From assembly GCA_963714525.1 (NCBI GenBank), contig CAVQPB010000021.1, positions 16,149-80,148 of the forward strand: a stretch of DNA of 64,000 nt, given 5' to 3'. Under the pieces are notes generated by a model. That model saw only the letters and a list, made by a program, of their open reading frames with translations, was not told where the DNA came from and did not search any database. This document shows positions 5,493 to 39,743 of this stretch, in pieces. This DNA is from an uncultured Pseudomonadota bacterium (GTDB taxonomy: Bacteria; Pseudomonadota; Gammaproteobacteria; Burkholderiales; JALYOK01). Position numbers and translations under genes: made by a program. Every line of letters begins with the position of its first letter. Positions within the stretch are counted from its first letter, which is position 1.

Positions 5493-6092
<600 letters not shown>

Positions 6093-11072: not shown

Positions 11073-11073
11073 A

Positions 11074-16688: not shown

Positions 16689-16946
16689 CTTGCATCCTCC
16701 AAACGGATAAAAATAAACGTAACGCGCGGTAAACGCTTTCAGGCTACTTGAAGTTGTTGTAAAGCGCAAAATATACCTGCCTCGGAAGGCAATACTGGTG
16801 CGCATCTCCGGGCAGGCATCGCTGTGAAGCAATATCCATGTGGCTCTTGGCGATGCACCCCACACATTATTCGATAGTAAAAATTACTAAGCTTAGTCGC
16901 GACGCGGTTGATCTATGTTTACGAAAGCTTACCTGACAGTTTATTT

Positions 16947-18365: not shown

Positions 18366-18379
18366 GATTCCAAATCCTT

Positions 18380-18481
18380 ATTCCGTCTCCAAATCAAAAA
18401 GGACGCGAAGGCGAGCCGCAGACAGTGCTGTAACACGGCAAGGCGAAGCCGACAAAGTAATTTTTGATTTGGAAACGGAAT
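18380..18481. repeat. Repeat family A copy 2
   Basis: Arms are ATTCCGTCTCCAAATCAAAAA and TTTTTGATTTGGAAACGGAAT. The core matches 1543-1644. The element fills the gap between the GS-like gene stop (18481-18483) and the SD (TCCTT, 18375-18379) of the aminotransferase gene. Confidence 0.8.
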
Positions 18482-19848: not shown

Positions 19849-19898
19849 ATTGCTTCCTTTGTTCTGTGCGCTCCCATACATACTAACTTATCTGGATT

Positions 19899-19956
19899 AT
19901 GTAGCCCGGAAGGAGCGCAGCGGATTCCGGGATCCCGGATTTCATCCGGGCTACAT
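19899..19956. repeat. REP-like palindrome (TGTAGCCCGG...CCGGGCTACA type)
   Basis: ATGTAGCCCGG (19899-19909) pairs with CCGGGCTACAT (19946-19956). It lies in the gap between the ald stop and the GS-like gene start. Confidence 0.6.
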
Positions 19957-19962
19957 TATTTT

Positions 19963-21067: not shown

Positions 21068-21272
21068 GATCGTCGCTTTCTATATTTGCCTGAAGCAATT
21101 TGCCTTAGGCATCTATGTGAGCCTAGCCGAGGAGCCAATAGGGATGCGGCGCTCAAGCCATGCATTGCCAACGACCAGTATCCTCGCGCTTCTGCGGCGT
21201 GTCAACTTAGTAACGTTGTCTCACGCATTCGCCGGCGACGCGTTCGACCGCCGTAAAGAAAACCCAAATGAT

Positions 21273-21337
21273 CGTAGGGTGCGCATTGCGCACGCGGACA
21301 GTTGAGCGTTAACCGCGTGCGCGGTGCGCACCCTACG
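21273..21337. repeat. Repeat family D copy 1 (CGTAGGGTGCGCA...TGCGCACCCTACG palindrome)
   Basis: Arms are CGTAGGGTGCGCATTGCGCAC and GTGCGCGGTGCGCACCCTACG. The element starts 13 nt beyond the stop of the PuuB-like gene. It is related to 62308-62366. Confidence 0.65.
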
Positions 21338-21350
21338 GCTTGCTTCGGAT

Positions 21351-22649
21351 TCAGCCGAGCGCGTCGCGCAAACGATAGTACAAAGTTCCCAGCACCAATC
21401 CCGGCGTGCGCAGCGTACGCCCACCCGGAAACGCGCGGTGCTGGATACGGGTGAACACATCGAAGCGTTCCGCTTGTCCGGCGATGGCTTCGGCGGCGAG
21501 TTTGCCGGCCATGCCGGAAAGGGCGAGGCCGTGACCGCTGAAGCCTTGCAAGTAATAAATATTCGGCGCCAGGCGATTGAAATCCGGCGCGCGATTGAGG
21601 GTGATGTCGATCATGCCGCCCCAGCCGTATTCGACTTTTGTGGCCTTCAATTGCGGATAAAGCCCAACCATTTTCTGGCGCAGCCATTCGACGCCGTCGC
21701 TGCTATCGTGTTTCGAATAGGTCGAGCGTCCGCCCCACAGCACGCGATGGTCCGGTGTAACCCGGTAATAGTCGAGCAGGAAGTTGCTGTCGCATACGGC
21801 GGCGCGATGGCGAACCAAACTGTCGGCCAATTGTGGATCGAGCCGCTCCGTCGCAAATACCGTGCCGCCGACGGGCATGATGCGCTCCTCTAAATTGGGT
21901 GCGAGATCGCCGATGAAGACGTTGGTGGCGAGCACGGCGAAACGGCAAGCGACATTACCCGTAGCAGTTTCAATGCGTGGTCGATCGCCTAGCTGCAGCG
22001 ATTTGACGTGACTGTGTTCGAAGATTTTTACGCCGGCAGCAATGCAGGCTTTTGCTAGACCTAACGCATATTTCAGCGGATGAATGTGGCCGGACAATCG
22101 GTCGTAAACGGCAGCGTGATAATGCGCGCTTGCCGTCCATTGCCCGACTTGTTGGGGTGGGATGTATTCCACGAATTCGCCGTAACCATATTTCGCACGC
22201 AGTTCTTCGTGCCATTCGCGCAAGTGCGCGACATGAGACTTGCGCGCGGCAAGCAGCAACCAGCCGGGCGTGAAGTCACAATCGATTTGCAATCGCGCCA
22301 TACGCTCGTACACGAGCCTCACGCCCTCGACGGAAATATCCCAGGCGCGCTTTGCATCTTGCAGGCCCAAGTGTTTTTCGATGGCGCCGTTATCACAACC
22401 AAACCCGACGATGACTTGGCCGCCGTTACGCCCCGATGCGGCCCAGGCGATTTCGCGGCTTTCCAGCAGCGCGACGGAGAATCCGCGCTGCGCCAATTCC
22501 AGCGCGGCCGATAGGCCGCTCAGCCCACCACCGACTACGCAGACGTCGGCGTCGATGTCGCCATTAAGTGTCGGAAACGATGGGCCACGCGGCGCGGTGG
22601 CGGTGTAGTAGTTGTTGCCGGTAAGTTGGTCGGTTTGGGTGAAGACCAA
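21351..22649 (-). CDS. FAD-dependent oxidoreductase (gamma-glutamylputrescine oxidase PuuB-like)
   Basis: 432 aa. Dinucleotide-binding motif DVCVVGGGLSGLSAALELAQRG. DAO-family pattern (ASGRNGGQ). The apparent start is TTG and is uncertain. Confidence 0.8.
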   Translation of the reverse strand: MVFTQTDQLTGNNYYTATAPRGPSFPTLNGDIDADVCVVGGGLSGLSAALELAQRGFSVALLESREIAWAASGRNGGQVIVGFGCDNGAIEKHLGLQDAKRAWDISVEGVRLVYERMARLQIDCDFTPGWLLLAARKSHVAHLREWHEELRAKYGYGEFVEYIPPQQVGQWTASAHYHAAVYDRLSGHIHPLKYALGLAKACIAAGVKIFEHSHVKSLQLGDRPRIETATGNVACRFAVLATNVFIGDLAPNLEERIMPVGGTVFATERLDPQLADSLVRHRAAVCDSNFLLDYYRVTPDHRVLWGGRSTYSKHDSSDGVEWLRQKMVGLYPQLKATKVEYGWGGMIDITLNRAPDFNRLAPNIYYLQGFSGHGLALSGMAGKLAAEAIAGQAERFDVFTRIQHRAFPGGRTLRTPGLVLGTLYYRLRDALG

Positions 22650-22673
22650 GGTAACGAAAACCTATTACTAGTT

Positions 22674-22751
22674 GTCGTTCCCGCGAAGGCGGGAATCCAG
22701 TTGAGCCTTTACGAACGTCAACACTGGATTCCCGCCTGCGCGGGAATGACG
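22674..22751. repeat. Repeat family B copy 2
   Basis: GTCGTTCCCGCGAAGGCGGGAATCCAG (22674-22700) is mirrored by CTGGATTCCCGCCTGCGCGGGAATGACG (22724-22751). Confidence 0.7.
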
Positions 22752-22772
22752 AATTTGATACTCTCTTGCTTA

Positions 22773-23705
22773 TCATTTTTTGTGTCGAGCGATTCGCCCG
22801 CACAAATACGTCCAAACAAAAAACGCGGCCGCATTGCTCGTCAACTCCGCATGATCATAAGGCGGCGCGACTTCCACGCAATCCATGCCGACAAACGGCA
22901 AATCGCTTAGCTCTTCTAGAAATGTCGCGACCTGCGCGGTACTCATTCCCGCCGGTTCCGGCGTCCCCGTTCCGGGTGCGAAGGCGGGGTCGAGGCAATC
23001 GATATCCAAGGTCAAATAAGTCGGCGGCGAACCTGCCGCGCGGATTCGCGCGCGTATATCATCGAGCTGTGAGGCAAGCTGGGTGCGGTTCTCCAGGCCA
23101 CGCAATTGGTGAGCGGTATAGATTCTGCCGCCCCGGGTGGTAACGTATTCGCGCGCCGCTTTGTCGCCGGAAGAGCGGATCCCGATTTGTATCGTCGCCT
23201 CCGGTATCACCAGGCCCTCTTGCAGCGCTTCGTAAGTCCAGGTGCCGTGGCCCGACGGCTCGCCGAAATGATTGGTCCACGTGTCGCAATGGGCGTCGAA
23301 ATGTATCAACGCCAAAGGTCGGCCATAGTGCTCGCGATACGCGCGCAATAGCGGCAAAGTAATGGAGTGATCGCCGCCCAGCCAGCACATGTGATGTTTG
23401 GCGATGAGTTCGAGCGCGAGGGGTTGTAACGTTTCCCGCATGGCCGATAAATTAGTATTCGGCAACAGCAGATCGCCGTAGTCCGTCAGCGACTCCTTCG
23501 GCGAACAATCGAACACCGGATGCACGCCGTCACACAGCATGTGGCTGGCACGGCGTATGGCGTGGGGGCCGAAGCGCGCACCGGGCCGATTGGTCACCGC
23601 TCCATCGTAAGCGATTCCCGCGACCGCATAGGCGCGGCTCGAATCGCGTTCGGCGACGTCGAGAAAACTTTGTTTGGTCAGAAAGGCAAAATCGTGTTGG
23701 CTCAT
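22773..23705 (-). CDS. ureohydrolase family enzyme (agmatinase / guanidinobutyrase-like)
   Basis: 310 aa. Mn-binding motifs HFDAHCDT, GGDHSIT and DIDCLDP are present. N-terminal ARFGPHAIR matches the family. Confidence 0.85.
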   Translation of the reverse strand: MSQHDFAFLTKQSFLDVAERDSSRAYAVAGIAYDGAVTNRPGARFGPHAIRRASHMLCDGVHPVFDCSPKESLTDYGDLLLPNTNLSAMRETLQPLALELIAKHHMCWLGGDHSITLPLLRAYREHYGRPLALIHFDAHCDTWTNHFGEPSGHGTWTYEALQEGLVIPEATIQIGIRSSGDKAAREYVTTRGGRIYTAHQLRGLENRTQLASQLDDIRARIRAAGSPPTYLTLDIDCLDPAFAPGTGTPEPAGMSTAQVATFLEELSDLPFVGMDCVEVAPPYDHAELTSNAAAFFVWTYLCGRIARHKK

Positions 23706-25362: not shown

Positions 25363-25719
25363 CTACGCAGCCGCACGCAGCGGTGCGCGAATGATAATTT
25401 CGTCATAAGGGGCCATGAGCTTATTCGCATCGTCACGCGTGATCAACCCACGTTCTTCGAGCTCGGCAACGTCCGTATGTACTCGTTTGTAGTCGCGTTC
25501 TAGTGCGAGCGCTAAGCTTCGAATCGACAAACCCGGGTGTTCGGCCACAAAGCGCAATAGCTCGATGCGCTTCTCCGAGAGCAAGGAAGCGAGCTCGGCC
25601 ATCGAATCGAAACCGAGAATTGGTTCGATCGCTCCGCCGCGCGCTGCGGTATTGGCAATCTTTTTGAACTTGCGCAAAGCCTTCGCGGGAGAAAAAACTT
25701 CGGCGGTGATTCTTTTCAT
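25363..25719 (-). CDS. winged-HTH DNA-binding protein, putative antitoxin (TumA-like)
   Basis: ATG at 25719. LLSEKRIELLRFVAEHPGLSIRSLALALERDYKRVHTDVAELEERGLI is a MarR/ArsR-type wHTH. It sits 35 nt downstream of the putative toxin gene. Confidence 0.6.
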   Translation of the reverse strand: MKRITAEVFSPAKALRKFKKIANTAARGGAIEPILGFDSMAELASLLSEKRIELLRFVAEHPGLSIRSLALALERDYKRVHTDVAELEERGLITRDDANKLMAPYDEIIIRAPLRAAA

Positions 25720-25754
25720 GAAATTAGCCTTTCCGTGTAGTTCGCTCGGTCCGA

Positions 25755-26060
25755 CTATTTGCCCCAATCCCATCCACGTCGAGCGCACTCTTGTTGAAAC
25801 TCATCGAGCAGCGCATCAACCGTCGTGAACTCGTAGGGCTCTTCGACATTTTCGAGATGGCGATGCGCGGCCTTTCCGGTATGCGTGTCATAGAGAACCA
25901 GACACTCGTCCGCTCGGCCGAAATACAATCGGAAATGAAGGCCGTGTGGTCGATGATTGTCCGGGCGTGGTATTCGATAAATCTGCATCTCCACGATCAA
26001 GGCGCCCTGGCGCGCTTTATAGGAAAAGAGCTGCTCGGCCTTCGACATATGGCGTATCAT
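25755..26060 (-). CDS. DUF6516/TumE-like putative toxin
   Basis: About 100 aa. IYRIPRPDNHRPHGLHFRLYFGRADECLVLYDTHTGKAAHRHLENVEEPYEF resembles the TumE-family pattern. This is from memory and was not searched. Confidence 0.5.
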   Translation of the reverse strand: MIRHMSKAEQLFSYKARQGALIVEMQIYRIPRPDNHRPHGLHFRLYFGRADECLVLYDTHTGKAAHRHLENVEEPYEFTTVDALLDEFQQECARRGWDWGK

Positions 26061-27440: not shown

Positions 27441-29057
27441 GTGCGGACTAAGACTCGAACTGAATCACCACAGTCGTGGTTGAAGAATGCACTGTCGTCT
27501 TGGATCACGGGGCTAGTGTTTGGTTTGATTGTCGCCGTGGTTTTAGTTTTCGTGACGGTCACGAATCTCTCTCGTATAGAAGACCGCGGAACTGATCTGG
27601 GAAATGTACTATTGGTGAAATTGAGGGAAGCTGCGTTTAAAGTCACTCTGGACTCTGAGCTTCCAAGAAAAGCAGAGATGGAGATCGGCGCAAAAAAGCA
27701 GAGCGAGGCCGATCTAGTTCAGGGCTATGTCTTTATAGACATTGATCCCGGCGGTATTCGCTCGGCACAGCATCTGGTCAAGACGGACATCGACATAGCC
27801 TCCACAACGGCAGGGGCAAGTGCAAGTGAGGACGCTTGCGCCGCCTTGGTATCTGCACTTGGTACCAAATACCGCTTACCACCCGCAAGATCGGATGGCC
27901 AAAGCGGCAACGTTGAACTGAACTGCAGTCAGCATCGTTCACCTAATCGTTACTTGCTTGCTGAGATTGTTTCTGAGCTCACGCAACGTAAGCCAAGGCT
28001 CATAGTCCTGGATTTCGTTCTATACGATGACCCAGGGATTTTCTCAGAGCAAGAAAACAAGGCGCTTAGAGGTGCGCTTGAGCAATCCAAAGTTCCTGTA
28101 TTTTTTGTTGCGCCGTATTTGTATCAGCGGAGCGAAGGCGATATTCATTGGTTGACTCGCGATTCCGTCGGCCTTTTTCTGCCTCATAAGCGCTCGGCCC
28201 ACGTGCATGCGCTCCCGCATTTCCCCGTGCCTGGTGAGCCAGTGCGCGCTTTCCCAGAGTGCTATCGAGTAACACCGGGACCAGGCGAAGGCGGGACGAA
28301 GGCGATTTCAAGCCTACCTCATGCCGTAGCTACAACAGTGCGAACTGGCGAAGTGGCTCTCGGGAGTGTCTGCCCAGACTTCCCTCAACGAACACGTGGC
28401 AACGCGAAGATCGTCACGAACGAGAGAATTATCTATACATTGCCCGGTAGCATCGAACATGTCGACGGCAAATCTGAGACTGATTTCGCGCTAGCGGCCA
28501 AATACAATCGCCTCTACGTGCGCTGCCTCGCGGAGAATCTCTGGAAATCAGAAGCGCTTTGCTCCCAAGAGCAAACGTTTCACGGGAAAGTCGTCGTGCT
28601 CGGAGTCTCGAATCCGACGCGAAAGGATATTCTCCAGACGCCGTTAGGACAAATGCCGGGGGCTTTGGTAACGCTAAATGCGATTAGAAGCTACGTTCTG
28701 TACCCAAACCTTGAGGAGAGAAGCATAGCGCTAAAGTTAGTTGAGAAGACGTCAGTTACTCTTGCTTGTTCGCTCGTATGGCTAGGGTACTGGCTTCTCT
28801 ACTACCGCCGCGTTGCGATGAGCAAGAGTCGCGGAATAGCAGCCTGGTGCACGACAATGATCAGTTTCACGGTTTGCGGCGTAGCCGTTTGCATGCTGGC
28901 GGTTTGGCTTAGCTTACAGCTGCATTCGCCGCCCAAATTGGACATACTGCTTCCCATTCTCGCCATCGGGCTTGAAGTCTACGGGGAGGGCGCAAGATGG
29001 GTAATAAATCACACCCATGAGTTCGTGGACGGGATCCTTCGAAAGGTGTTCAAATGA
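27441..29057 (+). CDS. CHASE2 domain-containing membrane protein without output domain
   Basis: GTG start 6 nt after AGGA. There is one N-terminal TM helix and a hydrophilic region of about 395 aa. That region carries CHASE2-like motifs (YVFIDIDPGG, PRLIVLDFVLYDD, GKVVVLGVSNPTRKDILQTPLGQMPGALVTLNAI). Three C-terminal TM helices follow, with only 24 residues after them. Confidence 0.8.
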   Translation: MRTKTRTESPQSWLKNALSSWITGLVFGLIVAVVLVFVTVTNLSRIEDRGTDLGNVLLVKLREAAFKVTLDSELPRKAEMEIGAKKQSEADLVQGYVFIDIDPGGIRSAQHLVKTDIDIASTTAGASASEDACAALVSALGTKYRLPPARSDGQSGNVELNCSQHRSPNRYLLAEIVSELTQRKPRLIVLDFVLYDDPGIFSEQENKALRGALEQSKVPVFFVAPYLYQRSEGDIHWLTRDSVGLFLPHKRSAHVHALPHFPVPGEPVRAFPECYRVTPGPGEGGTKAISSLPHAVATTVRTGEVALGSVCPDFPQRTRGNAKIVTNERIIYTLPGSIEHVDGKSETDFALAAKYNRLYVRCLAENLWKSEALCSQEQTFHGKVVVLGVSNPTRKDILQTPLGQMPGALVTLNAIRSYVLYPNLEERSIALKLVEKTSVTLACSLVWLGYWLLYYRRVAMSKSRGIAAWCTTMISFTVCGVAVCMLAVWLSLQLHSPPKLDILLPILAIGLEVYGEGARWVINHTHEFVDGILRKVFK

Positions 29058-30019
29058 TCCGCAGCATACTTAGCTTTCTGCACTTGGTATGTGTTTTAAC
29101 AGTTATGTCGCTGACTACACCGAGTCGCGCAGACACCGATTCACCCCAATGCGAGAGAAATCCCTTGAGCGTTCGATACTCGATCGAGCGAATTCTTCCG
29201 CCAAAGGGCAAAGTTATTATTCGTGCGATCAAAGGAGGCAATGAACGGATCACCGGCATAGGTGGGTGCATCGGCCCTGGCGAAACATTGATTTTGCCGG
29301 ACGATGTGGCATTGGTGGATGTTTTCGATGGCAGCAACGTCCTGCAGTGCAGTCGCGGCAATTGCCGGCTGGAGGCCAAGGATAGCTTCGGTGAAGCTGT
29401 CGCCGGTGCATTACGGTTTATAGCTCGCACGTACGCAGCATTGAGTCGTCCACCTACCCAGGATTTGCCCAAGGTTCCAGCCATTCGGGGCGAGGAGGAG
29501 GCAGTCGAGGCCAACGTACTAAGGCCTGTTGTCGCCCTTTCAGTGCCGGTCGCCCAAAAGATATCGCTTGCCACCGAGAATCTCGTCGTTGGGTGGCGGG
29601 ACGGCAAAGGGCCCGTTTGGGAATGTCGCGCTACCCGTATATCATCGATGCGGCGTTCAGCAGGATCCACTGCGTTGGGCACTGTAACAAGCGACTCGGA
29701 TCAATGGTGCGTGCTGAAGCTTGTCGGTATTGATGCGGGCGATACTATAGAACTCGAACTCTCCGATGGGTCGGGATCGACCGTGGTGTGGAAAATCACT
29801 GTCGTATCCTCGTCTGATGTACCTCTGCCGCCGTGGGCGGAGACCGGCCCCGTACTCCAGGGTCCGCCAGACGAAACAGCATGGGCGCTATGGTTGCTGC
29901 AGTCAAAACCCGAGTGGCGGCTTTACGTTTTGGCGGAGCTCTATCGATTGCAGCAACATCAGTGGCTTGCTGGCCACGTGCTACGGCGCATCCTGAGCGA
30001 GAGCGAATTAGCGCGATAA
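29054..30019 (+). CDS. secreted hypothetical protein (321 aa), translationally coupled to the CHASE2 gene
   Basis: The ATG overlaps the upstream stop (ATGA at 29054-29057). The signal peptide is MIRSILSFLHLVCVLTVMSLTTPSRA/DT. The mature part has six Cys. The N-terminal segment KGKVIIRAIKGG...PGETLILPDDVALVDVFDGSNVL is weakly FecR-like. No confident family was recognised. Confidence 0.7.
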   Translation: MIRSILSFLHLVCVLTVMSLTTPSRADTDSPQCERNPLSVRYSIERILPPKGKVIIRAIKGGNERITGIGGCIGPGETLILPDDVALVDVFDGSNVLQCSRGNCRLEAKDSFGEAVAGALRFIARTYAALSRPPTQDLPKVPAIRGEEEAVEANVLRPVVALSVPVAQKISLATENLVVGWRDGKGPVWECRATRISSMRRSAGSTALGTVTSDSDQWCVLKLVGIDAGDTIELELSDGSGSTVVWKITVVSSSDVPLPPWAETGPVLQGPPDETAWALWLLQSKPEWRLYVLAELYRLQQHQWLAGHVLRRILSESELAR

Positions 30020-30053: not shown

Positions 30054-33000
30054 TTACCGCCCATATAGAACGAACGGTGCCCAGAAGTAAGGGTGCCGAT
30101 CCACCGGATCTGATGAGTCCAAGAATTCTCTCTTGGTTTCAGCAAGAGCCTGAGCTACCGCGTGGCGTGGATTTGTTCTTTCAAGCTCTGGCAGCCGTGC
30201 GAGAAAAACTGTAACAAAGCGCGCAGACCGCTTGTCGTCCACTGGCCAGAGTGTCGCTACCGTGTTGGCATTGCCCGCTACGTAGAGCGCATAAGCAAGT
30301 CCGATCAATCCTTCTCCGCCAACGGTGCGACCGCGAGCTGTATCGCAGGCCGAGAGAATTGTCAGGTAGCTTCTAAGGGTCAAGTTCGCCCACTCGCCGG
30401 TCGTCACATAACCGTCCCTTGCTGGAGTGTCATCTTCAAATCTCAATACAAGCCCTGACCTTGAGGGCGCACACGGATCGAAATAGCCGTGAGCAGAGAA
30501 CAGCACGTGACGGTAGTTGGCGAGGTCACCATTACTCGAGATCGTCCGCAGCTTTGTTTCGGTAGCGTCATTTTGTGTTATCGCCTCGTGGTCTTGCAGT
30601 TTGAACAACGCCTTAGCGTCCGAAATCTCTTTGGCCGAATAATTCAGATTCTTCCATGGCTCTTTGGTCTTCGCGCATTCATTCGTGCGATACGTGGGAG
30701 GAGTACCTTTGTAGTTAGGATCCCCGAAGGCCAATAGGGGCCGCAGCGCTTGGGCTGATTCGCCCTCAGCTTGCTGATTCTGGATGCGCTGTTGTACGAG
30801 TTTTAGGACTGAGAACGAGTGAATCAGACTTAGATCGAAGCTGGCTATGAGCGGCTGGCCCTCGACCTTTAGAACATCAAACGCCAGCAACCCAAGCGGG
30901 CCGTCAGGCGAGATGATGATTCGCCTCTTGCCGACGAGCTTGGCTTTCAGTGGTTCGATTAACTTGTTGCTCAGAAAGACTATAAGCGGGTCGCCCGCAT
31001 TCTTACCTTCGGGGGTACTCGATTCAAGAATCCGAGCCCCTGGGGGCACGCAATCCCCTCCGACTGGACTGCCACCCGCATCGCTGAACGAACCGATACT
31101 CTTCATGGGCCTCAGGTTGCCCCACGTGTCATTTGTTCGAACCCGCGAAAGAGCGCGTTGTGGCTTAAGGTCCTCTTGGGGACAAGGCTTTCGTTCGGGA
31201 ACCGAGCGCCAGCGGCGTACGCCGTTCTCCTCCCAGGAGGCCAACGGTGAAGCTTTCCCTGCTGGTTGGCCAATCCACTTGCGCAGAGCTTCAACGGAGT
31301 CGCCCAGTCCTGGTATCGAACCCAGATCGAACCAGCCCACGTTGCTCTCGTTATCTAGAGTCAACGCAAAGACTCGTTGCCCGTCAACGACCATGTAGCT
31401 AACGAAGAGTTCGTCGGGCGAAAGCAGTTGAGGGGCATCGGGAACCGCCGCAAATTCAATCTCAGTTACTTTGGCGAAACGCGGATGCTCTTTCTTCAGT
31501 TTCGCACGCAAATCGCTTTCCTCCCGATCGAGACGCTTGAGGATATTGCGCGCTTCTTGATCTTCGGACTTCGCAAGGCGAACCTCTATCGCGGTGATTT
31601 GGTCGTTGAGATCCTGGAGACGTTTGGCGTCCGTATCGGGTATGATTCCAGAACGTAGAGTTTCGGATTCGGCCATTTGCTCTAAAAGAGTGCGTGCCTT
31701 TGTCATCTCTAAGATCTCGAAGGCCTCATTAGGTTGACCAGCCTGGTTGAGCGCAAAGGCAAAGGATTGGTATTGGGACATGTAGCGCTCAAATTGTTGT
31801 CGCTGCATGCTGCGGGATTCGGATCCAGCATGGACTCGAACCTGCTCAACGACATCAACGAACCGCGCCCACATTTTTAAAGCGTCAGAGTGTTTTCCAG
31901 ATAAGTACATTGTCTCTGCAAGTGCAGCTAGATGTTTCGCCGAGTTTGGATGGCGCCCGGGAAAATGCTGAGAGTGCACCTTCAATATGTCTTCAAACAA
32001 CGGAAGCGCCTCAGAGATCATGTTCTGTTCGCGCAGCGCGATTGCGTAGCTAAACGCTACGCTTAGGTGGTGCTTATATAACTCTGGGCGACTCGGGCCA
32101 TAAACCTCGTATGCTCTCCTAAAAGATGCCAATGCCTCTTTATCCTTGCCTTCGATTCGATAGAATTCTCCCAGAATGGAATCTAGCGAGGATTGGTTTA
32201 TTGCATTCAACTCTTGTTCTACTGCCGCATTGGGTGCAGACGCTGCCGCATCCTTCTCCAAAGCTTTCCACGCAACAATAAGCCTATCCACAATGGGCCG
32301 TGCCTTGTCTATTTGCTCCGTAGCGAGGAGTATGGCCAGATAGTAAAGCAACGCCGTAGGATCCTCTCTAGCAGACTGAATTTCATTGATAGCCCCTTCC
32401 TCACCAACGTTATTTCCTTCCCCAGATTCAGGATTCGGCACGACTAGCGCTTCGTCGGGAACCGGCCAATGTTCTTGCATGAACCGTCTTGCATCCTCTA
32501 TCTGCTTAAACTGCAGCAAGGCGTTCAGGTACAGGATGCGGGCCGTATACTGCAACATTGCGAAGTTCTGATCCATCTTTGACGTCGACCAAAATTCTTC
32601 GAACAGCCGTAGGCCCTTGGTCGATCCCCCGACCGTTACTAATTCATTGGCGTAAAGCAATAGCGCCTGCATCGTATTGACATGATCGGGCCCGCAGCTT
32701 TTCTTAACCTCACCGTAGTAACCCGCCACCTTATCCAGATAAGCCGACAACTCGCCATTTGACCGCAGCTTTTCCAACTCTTTTTGAACTTCGAGTGCTG
32801 CGGTACTTGCAGCGCGGAGTTCTTGGGCCTGTTTCTTTAGCTGTTCCGATCGCTGTTCGAGTTGTCGGAGAAGTTCGGCCGAGTCGCCCGGGGTCGTCTG
32901 AGGTATGGGTGCTTGGCGCACGTGCGGTTCTTGCAGGCCCGAAGCGCATGTCAGAGGCACGGGCAGGCTCTGGGATCGAGCGAGCACGGAACACGTTAGG

Positions 33001-33110
33001 ATCAGTCCGCAGCAAAACAGATAGGTTAGTTGCCGAGTCGGCTGGCAGCGCCACAGTCTAAGACTATGGCGGAAAGCCTTAATCACCGCAGTCCAAGAAT
33101 TACGCCCCAT
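30054..33110 (-). CDS. TPR repeat- and CHAT domain-containing caspase-like protease with N-terminal signal/anchor (1018 aa)
   Basis: ATG at 33110 is preceded by AAGGAGG. The N-terminus is ...RLWRCQPTRQLTYLFCCGLILTCSVLA/RS, followed by a coiled coil and TPR-like repeats. The C-terminal CHAT domain has His (FSAHGYF, codon 30489-30491) and Cys (LSACDTA, codon 30345-30347). Confidence 0.9.
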   Translation of the reverse strand: MGRNSWTAVIKAFRHSLRLWRCQPTRQLTYLFCCGLILTCSVLARSQSLPVPLTCASGLQEPHVRQAPIPQTTPGDSAELLRQLEQRSEQLKKQAQELRAASTAALEVQKELEKLRSNGELSAYLDKVAGYYGEVKKSCGPDHVNTMQALLLYANELVTVGGSTKGLRLFEEFWSTSKMDQNFAMLQYTARILYLNALLQFKQIEDARRFMQEHWPVPDEALVVPNPESGEGNNVGEEGAINEIQSAREDPTALLYYLAILLATEQIDKARPIVDRLIVAWKALEKDAAASAPNAAVEQELNAINQSSLDSILGEFYRIEGKDKEALASFRRAYEVYGPSRPELYKHHLSVAFSYAIALREQNMISEALPLFEDILKVHSQHFPGRHPNSAKHLAALAETMYLSGKHSDALKMWARFVDVVEQVRVHAGSESRSMQRQQFERYMSQYQSFAFALNQAGQPNEAFEILEMTKARTLLEQMAESETLRSGIIPDTDAKRLQDLNDQITAIEVRLAKSEDQEARNILKRLDREESDLRAKLKKEHPRFAKVTEIEFAAVPDAPQLLSPDELFVSYMVVDGQRVFALTLDNESNVGWFDLGSIPGLGDSVEALRKWIGQPAGKASPLASWEENGVRRWRSVPERKPCPQEDLKPQRALSRVRTNDTWGNLRPMKSIGSFSDAGGSPVGGDCVPPGARILESSTPEGKNAGDPLIVFLSNKLIEPLKAKLVGKRRIIISPDGPLGLLAFDVLKVEGQPLIASFDLSLIHSFSVLKLVQQRIQNQQAEGESAQALRPLLAFGDPNYKGTPPTYRTNECAKTKEPWKNLNYSAKEISDAKALFKLQDHEAITQNDATETKLRTISSNGDLANYRHVLFSAHGYFDPCAPSRSGLVLRFEDDTPARDGYVTTGEWANLTLRSYLTILSACDTARGRTVGGEGLIGLAYALYVAGNANTVATLWPVDDKRSARFVTVFLARLPELERTNPRHAVAQALAETKREFLDSSDPVDRHPYFWAPFVLYGR

Positions 33111-33180
33111 TTCGAGACCTCCTTTGCACCAAAGAAGGGGGTACGACTTAAATAGTGCCCCGAGTGCGATCATCGTACGC

Positions 33181-33199
33181 CGACACCCCGGGAGTGTCG
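33181..33199. promoter_or_regulatory. 19-bp near-perfect palindrome upstream of the CHAT gene (possible operator)
   Basis: In CGACACCCCGGGAGTGTCG, 8 of 9 symmetric pairs are complementary. It lies 71-89 nt upstream of the ATG at 33110. Confidence 0.25.
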
Positions 33200-33518
33200 A
33201 GCCTGCCTTGCCTTGAGGGCCACTTGCCACATACCAGGGTCTGCGAACAACAGTTGGTCATGAACAGTCTAGCGGGAGGGAGCCGATCTTTGCGCTTCAT
33301 AATGCCAGGTCTGTGTTAGTCGGTGTTTTTGGCCATACTTTCTCGCTGCACGACGGCTTTCAGCGGTGCAGTGTTTGAAAGCCACTCGTACGGACAGGGT
33401 CGAAAATCGGGCAGCATGTTTTTTTACACTAGTTCGCGTTTCAGGAAGACGTGAAGTGTGCGCTTTGCGATTGTGAGCCGAAGCGCCGCGACCTTACGTC
33501 AGCTATGTGAATGGTGCC

Positions 33519-33587: not shown

Positions 33588-33611
33588 AAAAAACGGTGCT
33601 CATCAAGCACC
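33588..33611 (-). terminator. Rho-independent terminator of the amine dehydrogenase operon
   Basis: The minus strand reads GGTGCT-TGATG-AGCACC followed by GTTTTTT, 9 nt after the cytochrome c stop. Confidence 0.7.
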
Positions 33612-33619
33612 AAAGTACG

Positions 33620-34081
33620 CTAGCGAATGCTAAACCCTAGATCGCGCAGTTCGGCGGCGAGAAGTTTTCGTTTGCTGGGAATATCGGCAGGGCGAGATTT
33701 GCGGTAGCGCTTTGCTTCTTCTGCGCTGTAGGGAACAAAATTCTCTGGCAACGATGCGCCGGCAAACCGGGTAAGGATATAGTTGGTCACGTCGGCCGCG
33801 CGGGTATCGGGCATGCCGGCGCTGAGCAGGCCGGGAATCTGCATGAGATACGCGCGGCCCGCTTCGGTGCGCAGAAAATAGCCGACCTGATCTTTTAGCG
33901 CTGGGATGCCTTTATGTTCGAGGCCGCGTCCATCTTGCGCGTGGCATCCGGAGCAATGCAGTATGTAGTCGATGCGGCCTTGATTGGAATACGGTTGGTC
34001 GCCGGCGATAGCAATACTGCTTACGCAAACGAGAATTGCCGAGAACTTCATGCAGAATCCCCGGCGGCTTAATTTTTTCAT
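33620..34081 (-). CDS. monohaem c-type cytochrome (probable electron acceptor of the amine dehydrogenase)
   Basis: Single CSGCH haem-binding motif, signal peptide and distal Met context YLMQIPG. The start may be the internal Met at 34051. Confidence 0.8.
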   Translation of the reverse strand: MKKLSRRGFCMKFSAILVCVSSIAIAGDQPYSNQGRIDYILHCSGCHAQDGRGLEHKGIPALKDQVGYFLRTEAGRAYLMQIPGLLSAGMPDTRAADVTNYILTRFAGASLPENFVPYSAEEAKRYRKSRPADIPSKRKLLAAELRDLGFSIR

Positions 34082-34138
34082 GGGTTGGTGTTGCTTCAGG
34101 TAGATTCCGCGCGCATGCGGAATCTACCTACCACCGAC

Positions 34139-34663
34139 TTAGCCCGCAGCAGTGCCGACGATGGCCGACACGGTGCAGTGATACATGGTTTGAGTATTGG
34201 CCATGCACCAGTTGATATCGTTGTGCACACCCATGCGGTAGCCGGGGCGCTCCCGTTCGTTGAAGTTACAAAGGCAGCGTCCGCACGCGACCTTGCCGCA
34301 GCAATCGTTGTAGCTCACCAGATAGGCTTTGCCGTCCTTGGGATTTTGGCAGGTGCCGACCCAGGTGACTTTCGAAACTTCCGAGCCCGGCGGACATTGA
34401 CTGGTTGTACCGCCGCAGCAGTTACAAATAAAACCATCCAGCGCGCAGTTACGCCAATAATCGCAGGCCGCGGGATCGTCGCTGGTCGTCATCGCCGCCT
34501 GGGCTGTGCCGCCGGAACGGTCGAATGGCAGCATGGGCAACGCGGCGCCGGCGACCATCCATTTGCCGATGCGGGCGAGTGCGCTGCGCCGGCTGGTGAG
34601 TTGCGCCGTTTCGCGCACCCGGCGTTCGGCGAATTTGTCCATCCAGTCCTGAAGGTATTTCAT
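34139..34663 (-). CDS. mauA: TTQ-dependent amine dehydrogenase light (small) subunit
   Basis: Long Tat-like leader (SRRSALARIGKW). The Cys-rich core CDYWRNCALDGFICNCCGG...VTWVGTC...NDCCGK...INWCMA...YHCT aligns by eye to the methylamine dehydrogenase beta subunit, including both TTQ Trp contexts. Confidence 0.9.
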   Translation of the reverse strand: MKYLQDWMDKFAERRVRETAQLTSRRSALARIGKWMVAGAALPMLPFDRSGGTAQAAMTTSDDPAACDYWRNCALDGFICNCCGGTTSQCPPGSEVSKVTWVGTCQNPKDGKAYLVSYNDCCGKVACGRCLCNFNERERPGYRMGVHNDINWCMANTQTMYHCTVSAIVGTAAG

Positions 34664-34689
34664 GGTATTCCTCCGTCCCTCGATTTCGA

Positions 34690-35301
34690 TTAAGCGGCTT
34701 TACTCGAATAACTTGAATTACTGCCGGTCAAAAAATCCTGTACCGAACCTACGCCGAGTTCCTTGGCGTTAAACAAACTTTCCAACTGCTCGCGATTGTT
34801 GATCATGCCCTTGGCGCGGATCGCGCCCGTCTCGTCGATCAGCACGGCGTAGGGCAAACGGCTGACGCGGTAGGTCATGCCCAGATCCGACGATAACACA
34901 TAGGGAAACTCCATCAGCTTGGCGTCGCGATAAAAGGCCAGATGTTGCGTCGCCTCACCGTCGCTGGCCAGGATCACTTGCAGCCATTCGCGTTCGGCTT
35001 GAGAAGCGGATTTCAGAATGGGCAATAGTTTTTTACACACGGGACACGTGGGCGAGAGGAAGAACAACAACTGACTCGACGCACGCTGTCCGCCGATGGC
35101 GATGACCGTGCCGTTCAGCGCTGGCAATTCAAACTTCGGCGCAGCCTCGCCGAGCTTGGGGCCGGCGTCCGTGATGAGCGCCCCCATGGGTGCGACCCTC
35201 TCGTACAGGATGCCTACCTGCCGCGCCAGCGCCCATAACGCAACGATGACGCCGAGCAGCAACACCCATAAGATCGCGTTCGAAATCATTAGGCTGGTCA
35301 C
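34690..35301 (-). CDS. mauD: methylamine dehydrogenase accessory protein MauD (thioredoxin-like)
   Basis: N-terminal TM helix and a thioredoxin fold with a CPVC motif (LSPTCPVCKKLLP). It overlaps mauE by 4 nt. Confidence 0.85.
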   Translation of the reverse strand: MTSLMISNAILWVLLLGVIVALWALARQVGILYERVAPMGALITDAGPKLGEAAPKFELPALNGTVIAIGGQRASSQLLFFLSPTCPVCKKLLPILKSASQAEREWLQVILASDGEATQHLAFYRDAKLMEFPYVLSSDLGMTYRVSRLPYAVLIDETGAIRAKGMINNREQLESLFNAKELGVGSVQDFLTGSNSSYSSKAA

Positions 35302-35864
35302 GACGCAACTCCCGAGGGTTTGCCCTTAAGTTGAGCGATGCGGCCGAACTGGCGCAGCAACTCGTCAAACGTTAAATAGCTTCCGTAGAGCGCGAGCACG
35401 CCGACAATCAACGTAACGGCATCTAGCCATTCATAGGAACGGCCTACGCTGGGTGCGGACATGGCTAGGGCAATACACGCTAACAAGCCATTGCGCACTA
35501 CCAAGCCCCAAGACAACAAATGCACGTCTCCGCCGCAACCGCAATCGATTTGATGCCGACCGCGCACTAGGTTGATGGCGATAGCGATGCCGTAGACGGT
35601 CATTAATGCAGCAAAAACAACTAATCCTAGGGGACGCGTTATCGGGACAAGAACGCCGACCCCGATTGCTGCTTCAACATAGGGCAAGCTCCGCGCGATC
35701 GGCATTACGCCGGCACTTGGCAAAAGTTGGTAGGCATCGAGTGCGCCGGCGAACACGTCTGGCTCGGAGAATTTGTGCCAAGCAGCGGAAAACAAAATCA
35801 ACGCGACGCATCCCGCGACGGCGCTAGCGGCGACAGGGTCCGTCAGGAACGGATACCACTGCAT
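35298..35864 (-). CDS. mauE: methylamine utilisation membrane protein MauE
   Basis: 188-aa polytopic membrane protein in the canonical position between the heavy-chain gene and mauD. Its ATG overlaps the mauB stop by 1 nt. Confidence 0.8.
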   Translation of the reverse strand: MQWYPFLTDPVAASAVAGCVALILFSAAWHKFSEPDVFAGALDAYQLLPSAGVMPIARSLPYVEAAIGVGVLVPITRPLGLVVFAALMTVYGIAIAINLVRGRHQIDCGCGGDVHLLSWGLVVRNGLLACIALAMSAPSVGRSYEWLDAVTLIVGVLALYGSYLTFDELLRQFGRIAQLKGKPSGVAS

Positions 35865-36997
35865 TATTCCGCCTCAAGCTGACCGGGAAACTCGCCAACT
35901 TGGGTCAAGCGGACTTTGGCTTTTGGTGAAATCTTATCCCAAACGACTACGGATGCTTTCATCGGGTCGATCGCGTACAGCCGTTTGCCGTCGGCGGATG
36001 GCTCCAACGCAATCGCCGAATTGCCGGGCAGGCGAGCGACCCGTTTCTTCGTTTGAGTGTCGAACGCCCAAATCTCGTTCGCAGGATTTTTATGACTACC
36101 TTCCACGCCGCCTGTATGCATCGTGACGTAAAGCCGATTGGTGCCCGGATGCACGGCGAGAGGCTGGTAGCCGCCCGGCCGCCAGGCTTTCTTCTGGTCG
36201 GCTTTCGATAGTAGCGGCCAAGTCCCTTCCAAGACCGCCGTGTCGCCGCCAACATTGACAGTCGCGATATTGCCTTTGAAGCTGACAAAGTGATAACGAT
36301 CGCCGTCTTGTTCGCCTTGCATAAACCAGGCATCTTCATCGGGATCGAAAAACTTACCGCTCGACGTGCGCGATGCTTCCTTGCCGCTGTCGTCTATCGT
36401 CACAGTGCTGACGTTGCCTTCGCCGCACAGGGAAGCAAAACGTTTTGAGTTGGACTGGGCAGGATAGATTGCCCAACAACCCGGCATGGAAATATCGCCG
36501 ACGTCTTTCTTCGCCTGCATATCGACCACCGTGACCGATGTTGCGGGAGTGGAGTTCTGTATGAACAGCCAGCGGCCGTCGGCGGATAAACGGATCAAGC
36601 CTTCGTAATTCAGCGCCATGGCGCGCTTGTCCGAAATAGGAATCTCGTACTTAAACGACAAATTATCCGCATCCCAGACTTCGACCACATCGACGCGATC
36701 GCCGCGCTGCCCGCGGGACAAATAGCCGGTAGCGACTATGATTTCGCGCTTGTTATTGCTCAGGATGAATTGGCCCGTGAAACCGGTGCCTATCATCCCA
36801 AGGTAATTGCCGCTTTCGGCGTCGACGACGTGAAGTTTGCCGTCGGATATATGATTAATCGCTATGTCGGAAATATAAATCCGATGCTTAGCGGTGATGG
36901 CGGGAAGCGTGCCGACCGTATCGTTGGGAAGGTCCGCCCAGACCGCCGTGGAGAGGGCTAACAAGCTGGTTACGACGATACCGCAATTGACATTCAT
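35864..36997 (-). CDS. mauB: TTQ-dependent amine dehydrogenase heavy (large) subunit, beta-propeller
   Basis: 377 aa with a signal peptide. RIYISD..., GDRVDVVEVWDADNL, AWRPGGYQPLAVH and RLYVTMH resemble the MADH/AADH alpha subunit. Confidence 0.9.
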   Translation of the reverse strand: MNVNCGIVVTSLLALSTAVWADLPNDTVGTLPAITAKHRIYISDIAINHISDGKLHVVDAESGNYLGMIGTGFTGQFILSNNKREIIVATGYLSRGQRGDRVDVVEVWDADNLSFKYEIPISDKRAMALNYEGLIRLSADGRWLFIQNSTPATSVTVVDMQAKKDVGDISMPGCWAIYPAQSNSKRFASLCGEGNVSTVTIDDSGKEASRTSSGKFFDPDEDAWFMQGEQDGDRYHFVSFKGNIATVNVGGDTAVLEGTWPLLSKADQKKAWRPGGYQPLAVHPGTNRLYVTMHTGGVEGSHKNPANEIWAFDTQTKKRVARLPGNSAIALEPSADGKRLYAIDPMKASVVVWDKISPKAKVRLTQVGEFPGQLEAE

Positions 36998-37145
36998 AGC
37001 GTTTCCTCCAATTTTTCTGCGTAACGCTTTAGAACACGGTTTGTTGATATTTCACTCTACTATAGAACGCTGAAGTTGGGAATAGCAGTAGACCCGCTCC
37101 GTAAATCGATTGCGCAGGCCGATCTACCCTCTATAGAATGATGCA

Positions 37146-38045
37146 ATGCAACGAAAACAATCACCGGTGCGGCGACCCAAATTCTTCCAGAATACTATCG
37201 CGATGGTCTATGACTTCGACGGCACCCTGTCGCCGCAGCCGATGCAGGAATACACGGTGCTGCCGAAGATCGGCATCGACAGTAAAACTTTTTGGGATCG
37301 CGTGAATAAAGAAGCTCACGAGACCGGCTCCGATTCCATGCTGGTCTATATGCGTTTGATGTTGCGCGAAGCGAATAAGCGCGAAGTCTCGATCAAGCGC
37401 GAAGATTTCGCCAAACTCGCGCATTCGATAGAGTATTTTCCCGGTGTCGAGACTTGGTTCGGCCGCGTGAATGCTTACGTAAAGCGGCGTGCGGCGGGCA
37501 GGGTCAAGGTGCAGCATTACATCATCTCCGCCGGCCAGAAGGAAATACTGGACGGCGTGTCGATTCGCAAACACTTTAAACAAATTTACGCGTCGGAATA
37601 TCATTTCGATCATAACGGCGTCGCTGATTTTCCGAAAGTGTTGATCAACGACACCACAAAAACCCAGTTCTTATTCCGCGTTAACAAAGGCCGCGAAGTG
37701 TTGAACGAATCCATCAACGAACACATGCCGGAAAACCTGCGGCCGATTCCGTTCAGCAACATGATCTACATCGGCGACGGCATGAGCGATGTGCCGTCGA
37801 TGGCGTTGACAAAAAAAAATGGCGGCCACACGATCGCCGTGCACGATCCGAAAAAGAAAAGCGGCCTTGAGCAATGCGTCAGCCTGATGCGCGCCAACCG
37901 GGTTGATCTGATCGCACCGGCGGACTATCGCAAGGGCGGCAAATTAGCGTTGCAAGTGGAACTGCTGCTCGACGCGGTCATCGCCAACATCGCCTACGAC
38001 GAGGAAATATTCGGCTGCAAGATCGACCACGGTCTATATGCTTAA
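37146..38045 (+). CDS. HAD-superfamily hydrolase
   Basis: Motif I VYDFDGTL and motif IV IYIGDGMSDVP. 299 aa. Confidence 0.7.
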   Translation: MQRKQSPVRRPKFFQNTIAMVYDFDGTLSPQPMQEYTVLPKIGIDSKTFWDRVNKEAHETGSDSMLVYMRLMLREANKREVSIKREDFAKLAHSIEYFPGVETWFGRVNAYVKRRAAGRVKVQHYIISAGQKEILDGVSIRKHFKQIYASEYHFDHNGVADFPKVLINDTTKTQFLFRVNKGREVLNESINEHMPENLRPIPFSNMIYIGDGMSDVPSMALTKKNGGHTIAVHDPKKKSGLEQCVSLMRANRVDLIAPADYRKGGKLALQVELLLDAVIANIAYDEEIFGCKIDHGLYA

Positions 38046-39018
38046 CAGCCATTCGTTCGGGGTGCTAAAGTGCCTATCGGAGGTGGAGTTCCGCTCGGGT
38101 ACGCAGATTGCCACTAAGCTCGGCGTGTCGCGCGCGACCCTGTCTAATTCTCTCAAAGATGTCGATCAACTCGGTGTTCAGGTCTACAAAGTCCACGGCC
38201 GTGGCTACCGGCTGGCAGTGCCGCTGGATTGGTTGGACTACGCCCAGGTCGTTCGCGCGCTCGGCCCCGCCGCCAAGTACTTCAATCTCGAAGTAGTGGA
38301 TGTTTCGGCCTCGACCAATACGGCGTTGATGGAACGAGCCGCCTCGGGAATTCCGAGCGGGACGGTGCTTGCCGCGGAGTATCAAAGCGAAGGTCGCGGC
38401 CGCCGTGGCCGGCGCTGGTTCGCGCCTTTGTGCGGCGGATTAACGTTTTCCTTGCTGTGGCGCTTTAACCAGGGTGCTGCGCAGTTGTCGTGCCTTAGCT
38501 TGGCGGTCGGGCTTGCCATCGCGCGCGCGTTACGCGAGCTAGGCGTGCGCGATGCGCAGCTCAAGTGGCCCAACGATATCCTGCATCATTACCGTAAGCT
38601 GGGCGGAATATTAATCGAGCTATCGGGAGATGTGCTGGGACCGACGTTGGCGGTGATCGGTGTTGGCGTCAACGTGCGGATCGATGAAACGACGTTGACT
38701 AAAATCGACCAAGCGACGACGGATTTGGCGAGTGTGCTGGAAGTAATACCGGCCCGCAGCGAGTTATTGGGTCAATTTTTGATACACCTTAGCAATATCT
38801 TGCCCCAGTTCGAAGCCGAAGGCTTTGCGCCGTTCCGCGACGAGTGGCTGGCTTGCCACGCCTATCAGAATCGATCGGTGCGCATGCTGTTGCCGCGCAA
38901 TACGGTGGAAGAGGGGGTGGTGACGGGCATAGCCGAAGACGGTAGCTTGTTGATCGATCGCCACGGGGGGACCAAGCGCTACACCGTCGGTGAAATTAGC
39001 TTGACCGCAGTACCATGA
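38038..39018 (+). CDS. birA: bifunctional biotin--[acetyl-CoA-carboxylase] ligase / biotin operon repressor
   Basis: N-terminal wHTH (GTQIATKLGVSRATLSNSLK) and the ligase motif QSEGRGRRGRRW. Confidence 0.9.
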   Translation: MLNSHSFGVLKCLSEVEFRSGTQIATKLGVSRATLSNSLKDVDQLGVQVYKVHGRGYRLAVPLDWLDYAQVVRALGPAAKYFNLEVVDVSASTNTALMERAASGIPSGTVLAAEYQSEGRGRRGRRWFAPLCGGLTFSLLWRFNQGAAQLSCLSLAVGLAIARALRELGVRDAQLKWPNDILHHYRKLGGILIELSGDVLGPTLAVIGVGVNVRIDETTLTKIDQATTDLASVLEVIPARSELLGQFLIHLSNILPQFEAEGFAPFRDEWLACHAYQNRSVRMLLPRNTVEEGVVTGIAEDGSLLIDRHGGTKRYTVGEISLTAVP

Positions 39019-39743
39019 TCCTCGCGATCGACGTGGGTAATAGCCGCATAAAGTGGGGCGGCTATCGAGACGGAGACTGGGTTTTTACAGGCGCCGTTGC
39101 AAACGATGAATTGCCGGCGCTTGCAAGTGCGTTGGCTGTGATTCCGAAGCCGGACAAGATTGCGATATCTAACGTGGCGGGCGAACGCCTACGTGTCGGC
39201 TTGGCCGAAACTTTGGCTCGATTCTCGGTAACAACGCATTGGATTGTCGCAGAGCGGGAACGATGCGGCGTAAAAAATAGCTACGCGGATCCGGCTAAGC
39301 TCGGCAGCGATCGCTGGGCGGCTTTGATCGCCGCGCGCCGCCTGCAGCGCGGCCCGGTGGTGGTCGTGAACGCCGGGACGGCGCTCACGGTCAATGCATT
39401 GTCGGCGTCCGGAGAATTCCTCGGCGGGTTGATTGTTCCCGGGATTAAACTCATGCTGCAGTCATTGACGACGGGCACCGCCCACGCCCATGCTCGGCAT
39501 GGTGAATTCGTCGCGTTTCCCACCAACACCCTGGATGCAGTTTATTCCGGCGCGATGAACGCCGCTTTAGGTAGCGTTGAACGCGTTGTTGCGGCATTGA
39601 GTGCGCGCGAAAGTTCATCGGTAAGTTGTATTGTCAGTGGGGGCGCTGCGCCGACGCTCATGCCTCATCTCGGAGCCAATGCGGTCGAGGTCCCGAATCT
39701 AGTTCTGCAGGGGCTCGTTATTCTTACGGAGTCGTCGGCGTGA
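39015..39743 (+). CDS. coaX: type III pantothenate kinase
   Basis: MILAIDVGNSRIKWG..., GSDRWAALIAA and VVNAGTALTV are typical of CoaX. It overlaps birA by 4 nt. Confidence 0.9.
   Translation: MILAIDVGNSRIKWGGYRDGDWVFTGAVANDELPALASALAVIPKPDKIAISNVAGERLRVGLAETLARFSVTTHWIVAERERCGVKNSYADPAKLGSDRWAALIAARRLQRGPVVVVNAGTALTVNALSASGEFLGGLIVPGIKLMLQSLTTGTAHAHARHGEFVAFPTNTLDAVYSGAMNAALGSVERVVAALSARESSSVSCIVSGGAAPTLMPHLGANAVEVPNLVLQGLVILTESSA

Follow-up and report, generated by a model that had tools for sequence, protein, structure and literature searches.

Within a 64-kb window (64,000 nt of contig CAVQPB010000021.1, the whole stretch of DNA that we analysed) from an uncultured soil member of the Burkholderiales, the minus strand carries five adjoining genes for a predicted tryptophan tryptophylquinone (TTQ) primary-amine dehydrogenase, its two accessory proteins and a cytochrome. 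The gene for the heavy (alpha) subunit, aauB-like and encoding 377 aa, occupies 35864-36997, and is followed by those for a MauE/AauE-like membrane accessory protein (188 aa, 35298-35864), a MauD/AauD-like thioredoxin-fold accessory protein with a CPVC motif (203 aa, 34690-35301), the aauA-like light (beta) subunit (174 aa, 34139-34663) and a monohaem c-type cytochrome (153 aa, 33620-34081, with CSGCH at residues 43-47). An earlier note on this DNA, made from the letters and open reading frames (ORFs), had described five ORFs with tight overlaps, and its coordinates match ours: heavy chain and mauE overlap by 1 nt (TGATG) and mauE and mauD by 4 nt (GTGA); gaps of 26 nt and 57 nt lie between mauD and the light chain and between the light chain and the cytochrome. 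A ribosome-binding site (RBS), GGAGGA at 37004-37009 on the minus strand, stands 6 nt ahead of the heavy-chain ATG, and 8 nt past the cytochrome stop codon comes an intrinsic-terminator-like hairpin followed by T6 (33594-33612, minus strand). That terminator had been called strong, which overstates it; the stem has 8 pairs (4 of them GC) and scores -12.3 kcal/mol (z = -1.8), a moderate hairpin.

The two accessory genes sit between both subunit genes, as in TTQ dehydrogenases. The MauE-like protein matches PF07291 at 3.5e-27 and the MauE of Paracoccus denitrificans at 5e-22 (phmmer), and the MauD-like protein scores 205.7 bits against TIGR02661, over the equivalog cut-off of 188.6. All five genes are under strong purifying selection, with dN/dS at 0.02-0.10 overall (heavy chain 0.03, MauE 0.09, MauD 0.02, cytochrome 0.09; the heavy chain of the related locus L005, whose coordinates are out of frame, was left out), showing that the operon is functional and has been vertically inherited in its lineage. 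We take the five-gene operon to be intact, translationally coupled and functional. The idea that it is instead a decaying, non-functional remnant draws on decayed copies known elsewhere, namely a light-chain fragment with two cytochrome genes on a Sphaerotilus plasmid, and on a heavy chain broken into two ORFs in the relative L006; against these stand the five intact and translationally coupled ORFs of the window, with their good RBS upstream, the full set of catalytic residues and the low dN/dS values, so that we regard this idea as refuted here and give it next to no weight.

The L006 locus, from a long-read metagenome-assembled genome (MAG), has its heavy-chain gene at 9860-11135 as two ORFs of 159 and 152 aa, with a tblastn match weaker than at other loci; a frameshift or an assembly error is the probable cause, rather than a real pseudogene.

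The light chain matches PF02975 at 2e-52. Both tryptophan contexts needed for TTQ had been pointed out before, and both bear inspection: W101 lies in VTWVGTC and W152 in INWCMA, and the two residues are invariant across TTQ light chains in our alignment. When aligned with aromatic amine dehydrogenase (AADH) and methylamine dehydrogenase (MADH), the chain also shows Asp120, the catalytic base, and Asp76 as invariant positions, and Thr164 is present. It has 14 Cys, and its long leader bears the twin-arginine motif TSRRSAL. By these alignments, the light chain holds every residue needed for TTQ chemistry. Its identity is 62% to the mature AADH light chain of Alcaligenes faecalis and 46% to P. denitrificans MauA; among solved structures AADH is again top, at 185 bits, with MADH at 129-146 bits; and against the MADH equivalog TIGR02659 it scores 162.1 bits, the cut-off of 196.85 not being reached. 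Several discrete features go the same way, for the 14-Cys pattern is that of AADH (MADH has 12 Cys), the window light chain and AADH alike lack the 2 residues inserted in MADH behind the second TTQ Trp, and Asn precedes that Trp, as in AADH. Pocket positions are mixed, with Tyr in place of AADH Phe169 (the MADH state) and Ile in place of AADH Val158.

The heavy chain begins with a Sec-type signal peptide (…STAVWA/DLP) and matches PF06433 at 1.2e-39 over profile positions 3-336 of 343. It reaches only 136.9 bits against the MADH equivalog TIGR02658, whose cut-off is 454.45. In a comparison with all solved structures A. faecalis AADH came top at 285 bits, vs. 107 bits for MADH. BLASTP identity was 37% to A. 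faecalis AADH, 38-40% to the Pollutimonas and Achromobacter proteins and 27% to P. denitrificans MauB; several uncharacterised clusters (defined at 50% identity) are nearer than AADH, at 44-47%. The family is large: an exhaustive search gave at least 837 representative clusters (50% identity) at E ≤ 0.001, and among the matches listed all 150 clusters outscore MADH against the window heavy chain. In a bootstrapped neighbour-joining tree of 68 heavy chains, the window protein and its environmental relatives from uncultured soil Burkholderiales form a clade with 100% support (hereafter the window clade), distinct from the Alcaligenaceae AADH clade, and an 83%-supported group takes in the window protein and AADH and shuts out MADH. 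The branching order within that group is poorly supported (3-20%), including the sister relation of the window clade and AADH.

Two positions that gate the active site bear on the substrate. Work on mutants in the Davidson laboratory is reported to have shown that MADH is confined to small amines by two active-site residues, alphaPhe55 and betaIle107. At the alphaPhe55 position the window clade and AADH both have His together with a 1-residue insertion, and at the betaIle107 position both have Asn. Gate positions in the AADH state support a substrate other than methylamine and a more open pocket.

The earlier note had proposed an aau-like enzyme that would fall if its subunits belonged with the methylamine dehydrogenases; tree, model cut-offs and structure matches all place them outside, and the aau-like reading stands. 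A diverged methylamine dehydrogenase, with mauF/G/L/M/N and amicyanin genes elsewhere in the genome, is accordingly a largely refuted and very improbable account. It can point to the Joint Genome Institute (JGI) annotation, which names close homologues 'methylamine dehydrogenase heavy/light chain', and to the MauD protein, which passes the MauD equivalog model; it must contend with heavy and light chains well below their own equivalog cut-offs (136.9 vs. 454 bits and 162 vs. 196.85 bits), with 27% identity to MauB and at least 150 representative clusters nearer than MADH, with both gate residues in the non-MADH state, and with the lack of homologues of the Mau accessory proteins MauF/G/J/M/N in the 64 kb. 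The JGI names are a likely database mislabel, which the present reading corrects and which would wrongly suggest methylotrophy in abundant uncultured soil Burkholderiales.

The last of these points was established with the plasmid-borne mau cluster of P. denitrificans PD1222 (mauR, F, B, E, D, A, amicyanin, J, G, M, N) as the source of query proteins. When all six reading frames of the window were searched as fragments with phmmer, MauB, E, D and A gave the only matches for the cluster; MauR, MauF, amicyanin, MauJ, MauG, MauM, MauN and, in addition, azurin gave none at E ≤ 10. Among ORFs of at least 80 aa, CxxCH occurs once in the window, in the cytochrome. The reported absence of a dihaem MauG and of mauF, mauM/N, amicyanin, azurin and mauR is thus confirmed for the window, as is that of mauJ.

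The same layout recurs widely. Genes in the BEDA order (mauB-E-D-A or their aau counterparts) with one or two genes for cytochrome c behind them, and flanks that contain no CCP_MauG gene, were found in six close MAG relatives, in two remoter members of the window clade (L013 and L014), in the AADH-clade genomes of Pollutimonas (L008) and Achromobacter (L015), on two plasmids and in three distant branches of the tree; a homologous cytochrome gene lies 3' of the light-chain gene at 12 of the 12 non-MADH loci examined. We used Pollutimonas and Achromobacter for the reference AADH layout, the A. faecalis AauB contig being 1.7 kb long and ending before the downstream genes. The A. faecalis aau cluster itself reportedly lacks mauFGLMN and has a monohaem cytochrome as orf-2 (Chistoserdov, 2001). 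The earlier note had put this resemblance forward, and it is borne out: the window operon is matched by the Pollutimonas and Achromobacter loci and differs from the mau cluster of P. denitrificans. The MADH cluster of P. denitrificans (mauRFBEDACJGMN, EC 1.4.9.1) has in common with the window the BEDA core, the TTQ tryptophans, the catalytic Asp, the MauD equivalog and the long twin-arginine leader of the light chain; it differs in sequence (27% identity for the heavy and 46% for the light chain), in its 12 Cys and 2-residue insertion, and in that the place of mauC (amicyanin) after the light-chain gene is taken in the window by cytochrome c.

The two plasmids show a variation on this layout. 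Pseudomonas aeruginosa RW109 plasmid 1, annotated aauB-mauE-mauD-aauA-cycA-cycA, has BEDA plus cytochrome c and no MauG, as in the window; Cupriavidus pinatubonensis p1 likewise has BEDA followed by cytochrome c and no MauG, and has genes for an aldehyde dehydrogenase and a LysR regulator in addition. The heavy chains of both plasmids share 35-39% identity with that of the window. Public records thus already carry the aauB/aauA annotation, and BEDA with cytochrome c and without MauG is a known arrangement; being the general layout of TTQ clusters other than those of MADH, and having been on record for AADH since 2001, it is not unusual. The window operon is an expected, ordinary catabolic module, and one ordinary case in a widespread family of AADH-like TTQ operons without linked MauG, most of which is unstudied.

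A further plasmid, NZ_CP035710.1 of Sphaerotilus sulfidivorans (L019), carries a decayed TTQ cluster at 6001-7022: a light-chain fragment 69% identical over residues 67-156 of the window protein, then two intact cytochrome c genes, with heavy chain, MauE and MauD not nearby. We rejected a light chain-cytochrome fusion in this plasmid, as the fragment is a decayed one beside separate cytochrome genes; the genes being separate, it offers no Rosetta-stone evidence.

How close the window enzyme stands to AADH proper is a separate question. It might be a true orthologue of A. faecalis AADH (EC 1.4.9.2; PDB 2AGL, 2H3X), acting on phenylethylamine, tyramine and tryptamine; azurin would then accept the electrons, and the cytochrome would lie downstream of it. 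For both subunits no characterised enzyme is nearer than AADH, and the A. faecalis aauBEDA-orf2 cluster is alike in gene order, including the orf-2-type cytochrome, in its lack of mauF/G/L/M/N and in having no cupredoxin gene; the proteins share the 14 Cys, the absence of the MADH insertion, the Asn before the second Trp and the gate residues, His at alphaPhe55 among them. Differences weigh more in our judgement, and we hold orthology to be unlikely, at about one chance in four: the heavy chain is 37% and the light chain 62% identical, uncharacterised clusters are nearer at 44-47%, the window clade (100% bootstrap) stands apart with its sister relation to AADH at 3-20% support, and azurin was not found in the window. 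Gene neighbourhoods differ as well. In the AADH clade (L008, L015) an aldehyde dehydrogenase and a Phenol_MetA_deg outer-membrane channel are encoded upstream and an AraC regulator downstream; these flanking genes are absent at the window operon and at L013, and L014 has an AraC-type gene only. The neighbours of L013 and L014 are of other and varying kinds. The proposal, a hedged one, that the substrate is not methylamine but an aromatic or other primary amine fared unevenly: cut-offs, gates and tree uphold its first part, and methylamine is probably not the substrate, whereas 'aromatic' is not established, because the heavy chain is 37% identical to AADH, the clade is separate and the AADH-clade neighbours are absent. 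In sequence terms the enzyme is an AADH-like TTQ dehydrogenase of the non-methylamine branch, and not AADH sensu stricto.

The 153-aa single-CxxCH cytochrome downstream of the light chain, also described beforehand, is real, and it is the least conventional component. Neither the window protein nor any of its 112 homologues in a large protein collection has a Pfam match, and the homologues are mostly named 'hypothetical' by their sources. By sequence it matches Thermus thermophilus c552 (phmmer, 1.3e-9), and its AlphaFold2 model (pLDDT 84) finds 1qyz, 1dt1 and 1c52 as best PDB fold matches with Foldseek, at TM 0.65. The likeness to c552 (1C52, 1DT1) extends to the class I fold and to a C-terminal helical extension (F-x-P-[FY]-[ST]-A-E-E…R); the difference is that c552 residues ~50-66 are absent from the window cytochrome, and Leu aligns with the axial Met69. 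The window protein is 30% identical to the ORF after aauA in Pollutimonas (E 2e-26), and cytochrome identity tracks that of the heavy chain, values of 80-82%, 48-52% and 30-35% going with heavy-chain values of 89%, 62-68% and 38-40%.

When aligned, the cytochromes encoded after light chains fall into two subfamilies. Those of group a keep the axial-Met loop (G-x-M-P), as in c552; those of group b have lost this loop of ~17 residues and have Leu, Ala, Asn or Ser at the c552 Met69 position. All copies from the window clade and the AADH clade (Pollutimonas and Achromobacter), the window protein included, are group b, and across clades the group b alignment contains no conserved Met, His or Lys beyond the CxxCH His; Met80 is found in 29 of the 35 window-clade cytochromes. 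Eleven of the 12 cluster types that we examined have a group b cytochrome; it stands alone in the window and AADH clades, and is kept even where a canonical group a cytochrome co-occurs, as on the RW109 and Cupriavidus plasmids, which have two cytochromes where the window has one, the Met-loop group a protein preceding a group b orthologue (30-31% identity). At L017 a group b gene was not found in the available stretch. We regard the putative Met-loop-less cytochrome as the operon's one unusual part, and as mildly surprising.

The L017 locus also encodes, at 11454-12071 after its group a cytochrome, a Tat-signal (twin-arginine) protein whose HxH motifs (HYHGLH, YHPH) are like those of multicopper oxidases; this protein could act as a maturation factor or as another redox partner.

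For A. faecalis AADH the physiological acceptor is azurin, and PDB 2H3X, 2H47 and 2IAA are complexes of the two proteins. Since that acceptor is not a cytochrome, the window cytochrome may act one step later, or otherwise. One speculative version of 'otherwise' is that group b cytochromes are not, or not only, electron carriers, their haem being five-coordinate or unusually ligated and serving MauG-independent TTQ maturation or a reaction with peroxide or O2. What recommends it is the missing loop, which in c552 and group a bears the axial Met, together with the want of any conserved Met, His or Lys but the CxxCH His, the spread of group b over 11 of the 12 cluster types, its position as sole cytochrome in the AADH clade, where azurin accepts the electrons, and the absence of MauG from the flanks of all loci examined. 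Other points argue against the idea: Met80 could be a ligand in the 29 of 35 window-clade sequences that have it, MauG chemistry needs two haems, and L017 lacks a group b gene in its available stretch. Moreover, Hothi et al. (2005) reportedly obtained TTQ-containing AADH from aauBEDA without orf-2 in P. denitrificans, a host that makes MauG. We consider a role beyond electron carriage a long shot, and the same holds for its most specific form, in which group b cytochromes of the non-MADH branch would supply or relay oxidising equivalents for TTQ biogenesis with no dedicated MauG; a group a cytochrome or azurin may then take the catalytic electrons.

Taken as a whole, the locus is best explained as a functional, periplasmic, AADH-like TTQ primary-amine dehydrogenase operon of an uncultured soil Burkholderiales bacterium, a reading to which we assign a probability of roughly 0.65. 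By analogy with the biochemistry of MADH and AADH, the heavy chain would be exported by Sec and the light chain through its long twin-arginine leader, with help from MauE and MauD. The membrane protein MauE and the thiol-disulfide oxidoreductase MauD, with its CPVC motif, would set up probably seven disulfides in the light chain, and Trp101 would receive the quinone oxygens and be joined to Trp152 by a cross-link, giving TTQ. The final six-electron maturation is assumed to fall to an unlinked MauG-like dihaem peroxidase encoded outside the window; dihaem bis-Fe(IV) MauG-like enzymes that are not linked to mau operons occur in Burkholderiales (PMC6405878). The mature enzyme would convert RCH2NH2 and H2O to RCHO and NH3 via an iminoquinone intermediate, Asp120 acting as the proton-abstracting base, and would pass the two electrons singly to a small periplasmic carrier. 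The substrate would be a primary amine bulkier than methylamine, either an arylethylamine or a longer-chain aliphatic amine, and the co-transcribed c552-like cytochrome would be the redox partner, directly or behind a cupredoxin encoded elsewhere.

Several points weigh against this account. The substrate is read from two gate residues and overall similarity, and much of the substrate channel is formed by the heavy chain, the subunit with just 37% identity to AADH. The aldehyde dehydrogenase, Phenol_MetA_deg porin and AraC regulator of AADH-clade operons do not accompany the window-clade genes. The unlinked MauG is assumed, not observed. The known acceptor of AADH is azurin, and a cytochrome with neither an axial-Met loop nor a universal replacement ligand is odd for a plain electron carrier.

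The operon adds a distinct, environmentally widespread clade to a family of at least 837 clusters whose characterised enzymes number only two, MADH and AADH. How TTQ can be completed when no MauG is linked is an old question; the operon poses it again on a wider basis, and makes the Met-loop-less cytochrome a concrete candidate.

Upstream of the heavy chain, the divergent intergenic region of 148 bp (36998-37145, assigned to neither strand) separates the operon from HAD-birA-coaX and contains, besides the RBS, two boxes that had been noticed at about 37.06 and 37.13 kb. Both are confirmed, as copies of TTCTATAG at 37060-37067 and 37131-37138; the window has 3 copies vs. 0.57 expected. The HAD-side box contains a perfect palindrome, TCTATAGA, 8 nt upstream of the annotated HAD start (37128-37145), and this palindrome occurs once, at the same position, in L001 (9868-9875), L003 (4340-4347), L004 (1025-1032), L005 (9866-9873) and L006 (9869-9876). 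The other box is kept in relatives only as TGTAGTAGAGT. A -10-like TAGAAT overlaps the palindrome, which could mean that the transcript has a very short leader or none, or that HAD really starts later, at Met20, just before the DFDGT motif. Scanning the region between aauB and HAD for the sigma-70 consensus gave no complete promoter, and no regulator gene lies beside it. On the far side, genes for a HAD-like hydrolase, BirA and a type III pantothenate kinase (37146-39743) overlap by 8 nt and 4 nt, and therefore probably form one operon; the BirA carries an N-terminal helix-turn-helix and is of the repressor type.

The wider setting is one of housekeeping genes (gatAB, mreBCD, pbp2, rodA, rlpA, coaX, birA, plsY, ppx, ppk). 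The divergent arrangement with HAD-birA-coaX is kept in six soil MAGs labelled Burkholderiales or Pseudomonadota, to which the window is 72-78% identical in DNA and 75-94% in proteins. Downstream of the operon, the segment 25228-33635 (~8.4 kb) is missing in L006, where the operon adjoins a LigB-like gene, and it is a variable insertion; no tRNA or Rfam element marking the segment was found. It encodes a CHASE2-domain protein (27441-29057), an unknown 321-aa protein (29054-30019) and a 1058-aa TPR-CHAT protein (30054-33230), and is poor in ORFs at 25.25-27.4 kb. At its edge lie two small overlapping minus-strand ORFs of 141 and 101 aa (25363-26060), with the look of a small two-gene module, possibly of toxin-antitoxin-like type.

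Beyond this segment, 10093-23705 is an amine catabolic region of the gamma-glutamylation (Puu/Spu-like) type. It encodes a class-I GATase/Peptidase_C26 protein, a DUF3138/BBP2 porin, an ABC importer (fused permease, TOBE_2 ATPase and binding protein), a class-III aminotransferase, a glutamine-synthetase-like enzyme, an AlaDH/PNT-like protein, a DAO-family FAD oxidoreductase and an arginase-family enzyme. The earlier note had drawn attention to the nearness of a polyamine region and an island to the TTQ operon. The nearness of the polyamine region is real, but linkage to either carries no functional weight, as close relatives lack it: in L006, L013 and L014 the TTQ operon has no linkage to a Puu/Spu-like region, which so says nothing about the substrate.

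Two other spots in the window deserve mention. At 6224-8429 there are two adjoining paralogous genes for 330-aa Trypsin_2 peptidases, one of them with C-terminal TPR repeats. At 54292-56134, among housekeeping genes (plsY, ppx, ppk), a 398-aa tyrosine recombinase with Phage_integrase and SAM-like N-terminal domains is encoded beside a putative endonuclease of the Uma2 family; this recombinase may be XerC/D-like, or may mark the edge of another mobile element.

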